Part shown: one piece after another, positions 42,943-55,743 of the stretch
Layout of the letters: each line of letters opens with the position of its first letter
Numbering within the stretch: position 1 is the first letter of the stretch
Source of the DNA: Lentisphaeria bacterium
GTDB lineage: Bacteria > Verrucomicrobiota > Lentisphaeria > JABSQK01 > JAWLHB01
Assembly (NCBI GenBank): GCA_041690595.1
Contig: JAWLHB010000021.1
Location: forward strand, 1-64,000
Direction of reading: 5' to 3'
Length of the DNA stretch: 64,000 bases
Notes under the pieces: model-generated
Told to the model about the DNA's origin: nothing
The model's database searches: none
Seen by the model: only the letters and a program-made list of their open reading frames with translations
Translations under genes and position numbers: made by a program

Positions 42943-44640
42943 TCATTCCAAGACGAGCGACTCGACAATGGCCAGCTCGCCGCCGATCATCTGATGGTTG
43001 GGGGCGCCCGGCGGCACCATCGGATAGACCTTCTCCATCACCTCGATGGGCGCGTGGATCAGGCAGGGGCCACTGCTGCCGAGGGCATAGTCGAGCACCG
43101 CCTCGGGATTGGCCGCACCGCCCAGATCATGGCTTTCCATGCCGCAGGCACGCGCCAGCGCACAGAAGTCGGGCGTATGCTGGAAGTCGCTGGCGAAGAG
43201 GCGGTTCTCGTAGAAGAGTTCCTGCTGCTGGTGCACCAGCCCAAGCGAACGGTTGTTCATGAGCACGATCTTGAGATTGCAGTTCTCCTCCACCGCGGTG
43301 ATCAGCTCCTGGAGGTTCATGAGGAGGCTGCCGTCGCCGGTGAAGCAGACCACCTGGCGCTCCGGGAAGGCAAGCGCGGCGCCGATGGCGGCCGGGAGAC
43401 CGAAGCCCATGGTGCCGAGCCCACCGCTGGTCAGCCACTGGCGGGACCGGCGGAAGGGATAGGTTTGGGCGGTCCACATCTGGTGCTGGCCCACGTCGGT
43501 GGCGATGATCGCTTCATCGCCCACGCCCTCCGCCACCCGGCGAATGAGGCCACAGGGGGTGCGGGGATCGTCGCCACCGGGAAGGAGGAGCGGATGCGCC
43601 GCCTTGAGCCTGGCGATGCGCTGGAGCCACGCTCTCCGAGGCCGCGGATGCAGGCGCGGCAGGAGCGCCTCGATCACCTGTCCGAGGTCGCCGGAGATGC
43701 CCACATGAGCCCGGCGGATCTTGTTGATCTCCCCCGGATCGATGTCGATGTGGATGATGTCGGCGTCGGGGCAGAAGGCGTTGGCCTGGCCGATGGCGCG
43801 ATCGTCGAAGCGGGAGCCGGCAGCGATCAGCAGGTCGCATTCCTGAAGCGCAAGGTTGGTGTAGCGGGCGCCATGCATGCCGAGCATGCCCAGAGAGAGC
43901 GGATGGTCCATCGGCATCGCGCCGAGCCCCATCAAGGTCATCGTCGTCGGCAGGCTGCACATTTCGGCCAGGCGCGTGGCCAGCTCGCCCGCACCCGAGG
44001 CGATGGCGCCGCCGCCGAGATAGAGGATCGGCCGTGCCGCGGCATCGATCATCGCCGCCGCGCGTGCGATGGCAGTCGGATCGAGTTCGGGAAGCGGCTC
44101 CGGTTCACCGGGTTCCGGCCAGGCCGCGACGTCGATGCTCTGCAGTTGCACATCCTTGGGCACGTCGATGAGCACCGGTCCCGGCCGACCGCTGGCGGCG
44201 AGTCGAAAGGCCATGGGGATGAGGGTCAGCAGCTCCGCGGCGGACTTCGCCATGAAGGCTCCTTTGGTGAAGGAAGCGCAGATGTCGCAGGTATTCACCT
44301 CCTGGAAGGCCATGGTACCGAGCAACGATGTCGGCACCTGCCCCGTGATGCAGATGATGGGAATGGAATCGAGCCAGGCATCGGCGATGGCCGTGAGCGT
44401 ATTGGTGGCGCCTGGGCCGCTGGTGGCAAAGCAGATGGCCGGCCGCCCCGTGGCGCGGGCCATGCCCTGGGCCATGAAGGCTGCCCCCTGTTCATGGCGG
44501 GCGAGGATATGGCGAATCCGGCGACTCTGGCCAAGGGCGTCGTAGAGCGGCAGATTCGCCCCACCCGGAATGCCGGGAATGAGCCGAATGCCCTGCCGCT
44601 CGAGCAGGTGGATGATGATCTGGGCGCCTGTGTATCGCAT
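42943..44640 (-). CDS. ilvB: Acetolactate synthase large subunit (AHAS I type)
   Basis: GIPGGANLPLYDAL, RHEQGA, SGPGATN, GMLGMHG, DVGQHQMW, GDGSL.MN, KVYPMVPPGA; SD aaggag. Confidence 0.96.
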   Translation of the reverse strand: MRYTGAQIIIHLLERQGIRLIPGIPGGANLPLYDALGQSRRIRHILARHEQGAAFMAQGMARATGRPAICFATSGPGATNTLTAIADAWLDSIPIICITGQVPTSLLGTMAFQEVNTCDICASFTKGAFMAKSAAELLTLIPMAFRLAASGRPGPVLIDVPKDVQLQSIDVAAWPEPGEPEPLPELDPTAIARAAAMIDAAARPILYLGGGAIASGAGELATRLAEMCSLPTTMTLMGLGAMPMDHPLSLGMLGMHGARYTNLALQECDLLIAAGSRFDDRAIGQANAFCPDADIIHIDIDPGEINKIRRAHVGISGDLGQVIEALLPRLHPRPRRAWLQRIARLKAAHPLLLPGGDDPRTPCGLIRRVAEGVGDEAIIATDVGQHQMWTAQTYPFRRSRQWLTSGGLGTMGFGLPAAIGAALAFPERQVVCFTGDGSLLMNLQELITAVEENCNLKIVLMNNRSLGLVHQQQELFYENRLFASDFQHTPDFCALARACGMESHDLGGAANPEAVLDYALGSSGPCLIHAPIEVMEKVYPMVPPGAPNHQMIGGELAIVESLVLE

Positions 44641-53014: not shown

Positions 53015-54313
53015 TTATCGGAATTGATTGCTTTCGATGCGGACCGCCATGCCCTGAGCCGCGAGCAGGCGGAAGAAGTGAGCTTCCAGCAGGGGATCCT
53101 GCATGGTGCGGCCAAAGGTAATATAAAGATTGTCGCCAAAACTGACGACCCCGCACGATACCCGCCGTGCCGTCGGCGGCGGAGGGATGAACTCGAAGCG
53201 CTCCACATGCTCTTCCAATGGCGACGGCAGCGTCACCCGGCCAAGATTCGACAGGCCGCTGCTGGTCCGCCCCTGGGCCATCACGTCATAGACGACCGAC
53301 AGAGCCCAGTCCTTGATCACAAGTGGCACAACCCGGATCAGCGGGTTGATCTCCGCCCGCACGTTGCGCCCCATCTGCTGCTTGAGGTACTTGTCGTCGA
53401 TCTCACTGCGCATGTAGTGATGCACGCGGCGCAGGATCTCCGCAAAGGAGTAATCTCCCAGTCGGGGATCGATCGAGGGGAGGACGGGAAGAAAGAAGTT
53501 ACGCATGGTGCGGGAGGGGAAGTGCTGGCGCAGGTTCACGGGAACGTCGATGCGTATCGGGCGTTGCAGACGGCTCCTGACCCGGGGCGGCAGTGCCTGG
53601 ATCACCTCCTGAAACGCGTGCAGATAGTCCGCGATGAGCAACTCCCCCATCGACACGCCTTCAGCCCGGGACAGATCGCGCATCTTCTGGACGGATACAA
53701 TACCGGTGGTGACGTGATAGACCCCCTTGGGCTCCAGAGGATGCGGCAGGTGAAACGCGGGCGTCTCTCGGCGGGGAGGCGGAATACCGGGCTGCCAGTA
53801 ACGGCGAAAGGCATCCTCGAATTCCTCTGGATGCAGCTCATCGCCCGGCCGCATGAGGTCATTCGGTTCCTGGGGCACGACCCCGAGTCGCCGCAGGTAC
53901 TCCGCCACCAACGCCCGCAGGAAGGCCAGCGCTCCCGTGCCGTCCGTCACCGCATGCGCAAATTCCACCGCGATGCGTCGATGGTAGACCCGCACGCGGA
54001 ACGGATAGGTTCCCCGCTTCTTCAGTTCGTAGTCCATGCAGGGAAAACGCCGATCCTCCACCACCTGTGGTGACGCTCGATTCATAGCCAGGTGGTACCA
54101 GAAGAAACCGGGACGCAGATGCACCGCAAAGTAGGGAAAACGGGGCATCAGCGCTTCCAGCGCCGCCTGCAGTTCAGCCACCCGCACCGGCCTTTTCAGC
54201 GTGCAGGAGAGCCGGAACAAGGTCGTGATGCGCCGGGTGCTGATCGACGAGAAGATCTTGCCCGCGTTGTCGAGACGGAACCACGGATCATGTTGCGCAA
54301 CAAGTTCTGGCAT
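53015..54313 (-). CDS. Alcohol acetyltransferase / condensation-domain-like acyltransferase
   Basis: WFRLDNAGKIF, GFFWY, HAVTDG (HxxxDG), PVNLRQHFPSRTMRNF, SNLG. Confidence 0.85.
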   Translation of the reverse strand: MPELVAQHDPWFRLDNAGKIFSSISTRRITTLFRLSCTLKRPVRVAELQAALEALMPRFPYFAVHLRPGFFWYHLAMNRASPQVVEDRRFPCMDYELKKRGTYPFRVRVYHRRIAVEFAHAVTDGTGALAFLRALVAEYLRRLGVVPQEPNDLMRPGDELHPEEFEDAFRRYWQPGIPPPRRETPAFHLPHPLEPKGVYHVTTGIVSVQKMRDLSRAEGVSMGELLIADYLHAFQEVIQALPPRVRSRLQRPIRIDVPVNLRQHFPSRTMRNFFLPVLPSIDPRLGDYSFAEILRRVHHYMRSEIDDKYLKQQMGRNVRAEINPLIRVVPLVIKDWALSVVYDVMAQGRTSSGLSNLGRVTLPSPLEEHVERFEFIPPPPTARRVSCGVVSFGDNLYITFGRTMQDPLLEAHFFRLLAAQGMAVRIESNQFR

Positions 54314-54415
54314 GCACGGCTAAGGCTGGATGTGATCCGTACGGAAGGGTGATACACATTAGTATAGGGTACTCCTTGCGGGTATCAAGTAGCCCAGCCT
54401 GAGGCCGCCTCGCCC

Positions 54416-55054
54416 TCAAGAGCTGGCGCCCATCGCCATCTGGCCGGCGCGGCGACTGGTTCGCGCGCTCTGCCGATACTTCAGCGACTTCACTGAACGG
54501 TAGCCCTTGCCCGTATTCAGGTAACGGTAAAGCCGCAGATACGTGTTGCCTTCCACCAGCATCATCAGCGGCTGTGGCACCTGATCAATGCACGCCATCG
54601 CCGCCTTCACCTGCGAATCCCAAAGTGGATGCAGCTTGTCCAGATCTCCGCCGGAGATCCGCTGACGACATTTGTCGGAACCGCATTCGCACGCCATGCT
54701 GTACTCCATGTTGAACATGCCATAGTCGTCGGTGACCTGTTCACCTGCCTGGATATCGCGGATGGCGATCTCGAAGCCATAGCCGGTGCTCAGGGTGTTC
54801 GGCTCGCACGAATGATTCTCGAATCGGGCCAGGTCCCAGCTCATGATCAGCTGCCCCTGCGGATCGCGATACGAATAGCGCTCGATTATCGGCCCATAGA
54901 TTGGATGCTTCACCCGCTCGTCATCCGCCGCGAAGACCAGCTCCAGCTCGTCCTTGACGTAGACGAGCGTGCCGCGCGGAATAAAGGAGGTCGCAAACAA
55001 GCCGTTGCCGACGGTATCGCTGATATGACGCAGCTCCGTGTGGGGATGAATCAT
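54416..55054 (-). CDS. SET domain protein with a post-SET Cys cluster
   Basis: GNGLFAT..IPRG, ARFENHSCEPN, AIRDIQAGEQVTDDYG, CECGSDKCR. Confidence 0.92.
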   Translation of the reverse strand: MIHPHTELRHISDTVGNGLFATSFIPRGTLVYVKDELELVFAADDERVKHPIYGPIIERYSYRDPQGQLIMSWDLARFENHSCEPNTLSTGYGFEIAIRDIQAGEQVTDDYGMFNMEYSMACECGSDKCRQRISGGDLDKLHPLWDSQVKAAMACIDQVPQPLMMLVEGNTYLRLYRYLNTGKGYRSVKSLKYRQSARTSRRAGQMAMGASS

Positions 55055-55127
55055 CGGGCATATCCTCAGGATGGTTGGGAACAGTGAGGTGGCGTTTGTC
55101 GGCCCCCGCATTCCCCTCCATCAGCCA

Positions 55128-55295
55128 CACAGGATCTGGTGATCCGTCCTGTGCTCATCCGGGGTGGCATGACTGCGCGAGCAATGGATCGCTCCATTTG
55201 CCGACACACACAATGCAGTTTACAGGCGTTGCCGCGGCAACCTTGCCGCGTATCCCGCCAGGGGTTGACCAGGCCCGGATGAGAACGGTCGGAAA
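55128..55295 (-). ncRNA. Candidate structured cis-regulatory RNA upstream of the SET gene
   Basis: 10-bp closing stem 55274-55283/55154-55163, GCGA-tetraloop hairpin, further internal stems and a competing hairpin at 55128-55153; no known family recognised. Confidence 0.45.
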
Positions 55296-55428
55296 ACCTG
55301 ATGGTTTACGAATTGCCATACTATAGCGCCAGCGTTAACGCCGTCGCGTTCTTTTTTCGGTCACAGGCAATAATTTCTTTGGCCGGTTTTCCGTCGATGG
55401 CCAAGTCACTGCTCCACCAGCCAGCAGA

Positions 55429-55743
55429 TCAGCTCATGTAGGAACAGCAATAATCGGTTACCGCGCGCACCCGGAGCTCGAACTTCGAATGCCCGGGCAC
55501 CTCGAAGCACTGCCCGCCGGCAACGGTTTGCCATTCCGCCACACCGGGCAGAAGAACATCCAGATCGCCCCCCAGGATCTCCATGATTTCCGCCGTATCC
55601 GTCCCAAACGAATACTCGCCTGGCAGCATGATGCCCAGCGTCTTCCGCGAGCCATCCGCAAAAAGTATCGAGCGGCTCGTCACCTTGCCATCAAAGTAGA
55701 CATTGGCCTTCTTCACTACCGTCACGCCCTTGAACTCATCCAT
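55429..55743 (-). CDS. ppnP: Pyrimidine/purine nucleoside phosphorylase (YaiE/DUF1255)
   Basis: [49 protein letters not shown]. Confidence 0.95.

Follow-up and report, generated by a model that had tools for sequence, protein, structure and literature searches.

The mRNA of a SET-domain methyltransferase gene of a Lentisphaeria bacterium likely carries a 5' leader of about 258 nt that is predicted to fold around a long closing stem. We propose, as a reading that comes close to an even call, that this is a lineage-specific folded leader which dampens or times translation initiation of the SET mRNA. An earlier, sequence-only reading of the window (the whole stretch of DNA analyzed here, 64,000 nt) had placed a candidate riboswitch-like structured RNA at this position; what holds of that proposal is a long, folded leader upstream of the SET gene that is neither a member of an Rfam family nor a repeat, whereas its interpretation as a riboswitch is unsupported.

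The SET gene and a ppnP-like gene both lie on the minus strand with 374 nt between them, and all elements of the leader fall within this gap or at the start of the SET gene, as follows (coordinates of the window).

55429 to 55743, minus strand: ppnP-like nucleoside phosphorylase gene (PF06865, E 1.2e-38), upstream of the SET gene
55320 to 55325, minus strand: predicted -10 element TATAGT with a poor -35 region, the best site in the gap
55055 to 55313, minus strand: predicted 5' leader of the SET mRNA, about 258 nt, its start site inferred from the -10 element
55284 to 55293, minus strand: imperfect extension of closing stem P1, pairing with 55143-55153 in 94% of 1,000 sampled folds of the leader plus first codons
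55274 to 55283, minus strand: 5' arm of P1, pairing with 55154-55163 at probability 0.99
55225 to 55259, minus strand: domain A, a GGCG/CGCC helix (0.79), an internal loop, and a 7-bp hairpin with an AGGU loop (0.96)
55228 to 55241, no strand: perfect 14-bp palindrome overlapping domain A, single copy in the genome, probably incidental
55172 to 55216, minus strand: domain B, a bulged hairpin with a GCGA tetraloop, upper helices at 0.77 to 0.82 and a less defined lower stem at 0.68
55154 to 55163, minus strand: 3' arm of P1, pairing probability 0.99
55128 to 55153, minus strand: alternative hairpin, mutually exclusive with the P1 extension
55125 to 55140, minus strand: strand freed by the P1 extension and predicted to pair with codons 4 to 9 (55028-55043) in the minimum-energy fold of 55025-55313
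55070 to 55122, minus strand: long hairpin ending right before the Shine-Dalgarno sequence, helices at 0.74 to 0.91, base helix in 97.5% of samples
55063 to 55067, minus strand: Shine-Dalgarno sequence GAGGA, separated from the start codon by 8 nt, with 3% of sampled folds leaving it fully open
54416 to 55054, minus strand: SET-domain methyltransferase gene, 212 aa (PF00856, E 1.2e-12), start at 55054

The SET gene is probably transcribed alone, since a near-consensus promoter (54388-54361, minus strand) follows it immediately; the genes served by that promoter encode a 432-aa protein with no Pfam or NCBIfam match and a DUF6320-like membrane protein. No second SET gene was found in the genome, and the proteins closest to the SET protein of the window share 50 to 57% identity with it. 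The window holds no tRNA or tmRNA, and a six-frame search of the gap against the genome for a coding remnant gave E 0.019 as its best other match. Within the leader, a 43-codon frame without an evident ribosome binding site of its own (55197-55066, minus strand) ends in a stop codon that overlaps the SET Shine-Dalgarno sequence.

The length of the leader follows from its promoter: a leader of about 258 nt is likely because TATAGT is the commonest -10-type hexamer of this genome and the only good site in the gap. Among 2,696 regions upstream of genes it is the most frequent TAnnnT hexamer (196 occurrences, versus 99 on the other strand), and its frequency there is 93-fold that in coding DNA of this genome. 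A genome-trained matrix gives the site a score of 7.5 and the next site in the gap -2.5; the median of upstream regions is higher, at 8.6, and 5 to 10% of coding stretches score as high as 7.5. An Escherichia coli-type promoter scan missed the site. It lies about 265 nt ahead of the SET start codon, with no rival nearer the gene, in agreement with the leader of about 260 nt that had been proposed from the TATAGT motif. Leaders of at least 250 nt make up 3.9% of the 1,724 predicted in the genome. With the predicted -10 element upstream of the fold, the fold would be located, as in a riboswitch, in the 5' leader of the gene to be regulated. The single RNA run available covers part of the SET coding region of a relative and not the leader, in contigs that cannot mark a start. 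On the plus strand, a terminator-like hairpin and T run (55337-55357 of the window) overlaps the upstream part of the SET promoter.

The computed fold of this leader is dominated by P1, which is formed in 99.9% of sampled folds of the leader plus first codons without any ligand. The perfect 10-bp stem, the 14-bp palindrome, and the hairpin that excludes the P1 extension had all been described before, and each was recovered where it had been placed; that hairpin and the P1 extension are treated as rival states in the forced-fold comparison below. Of the two domains said to be enclosed by P1, the GGCG/CGCC domain and the GCGA hairpin are reproduced, and the ACUGC/GCAGU helix assigned to the base of the latter is not among the minus-strand helices with a probability above 0.1; the ensemble instead favors UGUGU/GCGCA (0.68) as the lower stem. 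In domain A, one 8-mer occurs twice and flanks its own complement. The GCGA loop exists as such in one orientation, as the sequence-only reading had pointed out, and is, with the promoter and the gene, among the few features that choose the minus strand.

How far such a fold departs from chance depends on the comparison made. Dinucleotide shuffles of the region contain a perfect stem of at least 10 bp in 11 of 300 cases, and a palindrome of at least 14 bp arises in 47 of 2,000. The core (55143-55293) is more stable than shuffled sequence, with a z score of -3.12 on the minus strand and -3.26 on the plus strand and with 0 to 1 of 200 shuffles equally stable, and the whole leader gives -2.02 and -2.33, respectively. 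Since these values are nearly equal on both strands, the choice of strand is made by the promoter, the gene, and the GCGA loop only and not by folding. Against the rest of the genome, for which genes were called with a crude codon model (5,607 genes), the best 150-nt window of the leader (z -2.6) can be set beside 183 co-directional gaps of 300 to 500 nt, terminators and unannotated RNAs included, of which 45 reach -2.5 or below. Among 81 predicted leaders of 180 to 330 nt, 20 shuffles give it a z score of -1.3 and rank 21, its value from 200 shuffles would put it at about rank 11, and z scores of -2 or below occur in 6% of 459 predicted leaders of at least 60 nt, mostly shorter ones. In all, 14 to 26% of comparable noncoding stretches in the genome fold equally well, and the fold is above average for this genome and not exceptional. 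One of the three strongest folds among the 81 long leaders (z -3.7) belongs to the predicted leader, about 248 nt in length, of a minus-strand gene whose start is at 44640; it folds more strongly than the SET leader, and the window has no Rfam match.

Comparison with one close relative gives weak signs that the leader may be under purifying selection. Run X1 yielded short, low-depth contigs about 96% identical to the locus. Over 55109-55259, the contig of this run carries 3 differences in 151 leader bases; in the flanking coding contigs there are 11 in 247 and 5 in 151 positions. Nine of the 11 coding changes that could be placed are synonymous, that is, at least 9 over about 94 synonymous sites. 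Fisher's test of leader against synonymous changes gives a p value between 0.024 (8 changes) and 0.006 (10 changes), for a leader contig of 151 nt that has a depth of 4 and possibly stems from another strain than the flanking contigs. The sole leader change that was placed, at 55229, breaks the palindrome and adds a G-C pair to domain A, which goes from -21.2 to -24.8 kcal/mol. With strong caveats, this change favors an RNA fold over a DNA palindrome, and the palindrome, broken in the one relative read, looks incidental. Run X4 likewise shows little change in the neighboring gap 54294-54445, with 1 substitution and 2 gap columns. The comparison covers four of seven listed runs; X4 and X5 look like one data set.

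Homologs of the leader were sought at several distances, from a source genome that stands alone in its family among the genomes examined. BLAST of 60 relative genomes returned a single 23-nt match, and BLAST of 350 genomes of the phylum returned three matches of 27 to 32 nt that show no further likeness. A one-sequence covariance model, of low sensitivity and run without a positive control, found no member in 150 genomes of the class and 150 of the phylum, two samples that overlap. Applied to SET loci, the model found none in 64 of 169 loci nor in a set of 11, and another 12 gave only generic long stems. Local alignment to 152 and to 11 SET upstream regions reached z scores of 3.3 and 3.8 at best, both on short or gappy alignments, and the 163 distinct upstream regions taken from 183 SET loci include none that resembles the leader. 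The gap upstream of the speA-containing run was rejected as a paralog: its z score of 4.0 ranks only 7th against 1,580 other regions, on a gappy alignment. Searches of this kind have a limited reach for a diverged RNA, and as none of them returned a homolog, no covariation is available. The SET gene is itself patchy, being present in 3 of 351 genomes of the class, 12 of 401 of the phylum, and 10 of 301 in the class of genome G062, and its two homologs within the class are without a long leader.

Leaders of other kinds precede several SET homologs, mostly in the class of G062, as long stretches after a clear -10 site, and their motifs are common within pairs of loci and not between them; Bacteroidota SET homologs are mostly without such a leader. 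Upstream of their SET genes, two Phycisphaerae genomes share a leader with a three-way junction and, after it, a hairpin and U run (L041:2845-2985 and L045:2838-2985). All 30 modeled pairs of this leader are kept, and 3 of them carry changes in both partners, which does not exceed what the shuffle control gives (67 of 500); it has no Rfam match, a search of 150 genomes of its order yielded no additional member, and its model, tried as a relative of the leader in the window, does not match. A second pair, L199:2089-2325 (minus strand) and L201:1275-1500 (plus strand), has in common a SET leader of some 220 nt. It contains a long 5' hairpin, and a Shine-Dalgarno sequence and ATG open a short upstream frame containing LPFQ in both loci; it likewise has no Rfam match. 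L200 and L202 share a GC-rich leader motif about 100 nt before the SET start, and these two, L203, L214, and other homologs have a CGCGC-type run after the -10 site, which we take to resemble a GC-rich discriminator. Rfam searches of three sets of SET loci (8, 1, and 7 loci) gave nothing meaningful. The median predicted leader of SET homologs is 121 nt (n = 9) versus 64 nt (n = 1,681), the former from the 9 loci, out of 21 picked by hand, with a promoter above the cutoff, among them the window itself and kin, and the latter from one control genome. Tandem pairs of SET genes occur in L031:3001-4223, L111, and L169, with the second gene of L111 inferred from spacing.

The neighbors of SET homologs are mostly unrelated genes across the 183 loci, with one recurring association. 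In 8 of the 183, from three lineages, the SET gene lies inside a run of polyamine genes: after arginine decarboxylase (speA) in L223 and L224, between aminobutyraldehyde dehydrogenase and a PotA-type ATPase in L031, L043, L110, and L111, and between agmatinase and a deoxyhypusine-synthase-like gene in L068 and L141. As queries were drawn from those loci, the count is no unbiased test of enrichment. Given these neighborhoods, the SET family may methylate a polyamine, an activity that may have been proposed for bacterial SET enzymes before. The genes adjoining the SET gene of the window are not polyamine genes, and no spermidine synthase was found in its genome. No paper linking bacterial SET enzymes to polyamine methylation surfaced in our searches, the consulted text of PMC6356823 included. 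According to the portion of PMC12542666 consulted, SET enzymes can act on small molecules, as BurB does; together with the polyamine runs, this precedent makes the list of conceivable ligands wider than SAM and SAH, which as ligands would be suggested only by the cofactor of the SET enzyme.

The folded leader could be linked to expression of the SET gene through a translational gate. Transcription would start near 55313, and a stable closing stem would then hold the two hairpin domains. With P1 extended, the strand 55125-55140 would be free to pair with codons 4 to 9 and the ribosome binding site would be shut in a loop; with the hairpin at 55128-55153 formed instead, the site would open somewhat. 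This balance could conceivably be tipped by a protein, a metabolite, temperature, or the kinetics of cotranscriptional folding, and protection of the mRNA from decay may be a further role of the closing stem. In the forced-fold comparison, imposing the 55128-55153 hairpin removes the codon pairing at a cost of 5 kcal/mol in ensemble energy (-116.4 versus -121.4), and full opening of the Shine-Dalgarno sequence rises threefold, from 0.035 to 0.114. No terminator-like site was found between 54200 and 56000 on the minus strand, which makes translational control, if there is any control, the likelier kind. In these models, the translational gate appears plausible but weak. The aptamer plus expression platform that had been proposed is not supported: no homolog shows conserved ligand-contact bases or covariation that would define an aptamer, and as an expression platform the leader offers no terminator-like site on its own strand and only this modest shift at the Shine-Dalgarno sequence.

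The main competitor of a folded, translation-dampening leader is that the gap is ordinary long, GC-rich untranslated or spacer DNA, with stems that are the tail of a chance distribution and partly small local inversions, and with no selected function. We regard this as rather unlikely, while giving it real weight. It accounts well for a leader that is not exceptional among the gaps and leaders of its genome, that folds about as well on either strand, and that has no homolog, ahead of a patchy gene whose two homologs in the class do without a long leader; it fits less well with a core z score of about -3.1 that at most 1 of 200 shuffles equals, with the low divergence and the structure-friendly change in one relative, and with a leader length in the top 4%. 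A different kind of chance is invoked if the element is an independent small RNA, encoded on either strand and situated between ppnP and the SET gene by coincidence, which we judge improbable. The 150-nt fold is self-contained and closed by a long stem, it is slightly more stable on the plus strand, and a terminator-like site on that strand (55337-55350) lies just past it; however, one such site is what shuffles lead one to expect (mean, 1.1), plus-strand -10 sites upstream of the fold reach a score of 1.3 at most, the minus strand has no terminator between fold and gene, and the SET gene would be left without a promoter of its own. Least probable of all is that a small mobile element, bounded by imperfect terminal inverted repeats, came in with a horizontally acquired SET gene and left the structure as its scar. 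Imperfect inverted repeats of about 20 bp do bracket 150 bp, and the SET gene is sporadic in the class, yet the element is single copy with no target-site duplication seen, plasmid and phage records gave nothing better than E 0.3, and no meaningful viral match was obtained.

It could also be speculated that the leader represents an undescribed riboswitch class, in which the P1-closed two-domain fold binds a metabolite that stabilizes the P1 extension and turns translation off; this we consider doubtful, and the choice of SAM, SAH, methionine, or a polyamine-related compound as its ligand is just as speculative. The architecture is aptamer-like, with internal loops and a GNRA-type loop, and the mutually exclusive pairings are predicted to extend to the start region. 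SET homologs lie within polyamine gene runs, and BurB shows that a small molecule can be methylated by a SET enzyme (described in the consulted part of PMC12542666). Rare riboswitch variants are on record, among them the spermidine class with 13 examples (as given in the portion of PMC10853860 used here). On the other side, there is no second example and no Rfam match except an unrelated snoRNA at E 7, P1 is present in 99.9% of folds without ligand so that little is left to switch, no copy stands before metK or elsewhere in the genome, the genome has no spermidine synthase that could be found, and SET homologs have no common leader. An extension of this idea, equally improbable, is that the leader belongs to a rare, undescribed riboswitch class of which no other member has been sampled, and that this class controls how much is made of a SET enzyme with a small-molecule substrate of the polyamine or methionine type; more broadly, the SET family would repeatedly gain unrelated structured leaders across lineages because expression must track such a metabolite. 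A leader that senses a metabolite would found a new riboswitch class, whose ligand would hint at what this widespread family of SET methyltransferases in bacteria acts on. At present there is a single unlisted structured leader, which lacks the homologs that would make it a strong candidate. Easier to test is the finding that the SET family lies inside polyamine runs in three lineages, from which an assay of the enzyme on polyamines would follow.

Placing the folded SET leader among known systems begins with families and repeats. An Rfam scan, which had been recommended as a check, gives nothing at gathering score in the window, and within 54900-55500 at E values up to 10 it lists one unrelated snoRNA (E 7). 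Nor is the leader a dispersed repeat, a possibility that had also been raised: BLAST, nhmmer, a covariance model, and a pattern search of the genome found no paralog. Searches of plasmid and phage records gave best E values of 0.8 and 0.3, and three exact patterns matched viral contigs 0, 1, and 0 times, the one match being limited to 19 bases. With a single copy and no target-site duplication seen in the sequence at its ends, the element does not look like a dispersed repeat or miniature mobile element.

Among riboswitches, the SAM-I clan (RF00162, RF01725, and SAM-IV) with its spermidine variant invites comparison, as the leader precedes the gene of a SAM-using enzyme. The J1/2 and P3 pocket of SAM-I is marked by the words AUC-N-AGAG, GCAAC(C/U), and G(G/A)UGC(C/U), and all three are missing from the leader, in line with the earlier remark that SAM-I core motifs are absent. 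AUC/GAU pairs in P1, with A-U/U-A next to the junction, are likewise typical of SAM-I. P1 of the leader contains AUC/GAU, and a GGCAAC word occurs at 55233, but three further G-C pairs stand between AUC/GAU and the junction. Members of the clan and the spermidine variant are built on a four-stem junction, P1 to P4 (portion of PMC10853860 used here), whereas the leader is predicted to form a three-way junction of closing stem and two arms. The clan architecture also includes at least one pseudoknot (per the consulted part of PMC6890682), which is unmatched in the leader, where positions unpaired in the minimum-energy fold contain no complementary run of 4 or more. A search of the genome with RF00162 gave no match and was positive in 3 of 14 controls; the same with RF01725 gave no match either and was positive in no control, so it shows little. 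The region upstream of metK in this genome is unrelated to the leader. The core of the c-di-GMP-I (GEMM) riboswitch consists of GGCAAA, a GNRA hairpin, and GACGCAAA. The leader has GGCAAA and, after it, a hairpin whose loop is of the GNRA type (55202-55180), but the downstream GACGCAAA word is absent, its GCAA is paired, and Rfam gives no match.

Two further systems can be set beside the leader. The smtA motif ("Soda Lake RNA") of Thioalkalivibrio is a genus-restricted structured RNA of unknown function upstream of a SAM-dependent methyltransferase gene (consulted text of PMC11109978). Compared by description and not by sequence, that motif exceeds 350 nt, precedes a class I enzyme, and shows strong covariation, while the leader described here spans about 150 to 260 nt, precedes a SET enzyme, and is one example (same text of PMC11109978). 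SET domains are unmentioned in the motif surveys of PMC11109978 (main text, to which a supplement may add one) and PMC8632094 (main text and one supplement), and our literature search for SET domains together with riboswitches surfaced no relevant paper. The leader is unlisted in Rfam and in the literature searched. The rpoS mRNA of E. coli has a long, self-inhibitory leader. There is no sequence likeness between the two, and the SET leader has no known trans-acting small RNA or protein partner; what it may share with the rpoS type is the arrangement itself, in which a distant strand of the leader is predicted to pair across the translation start region.
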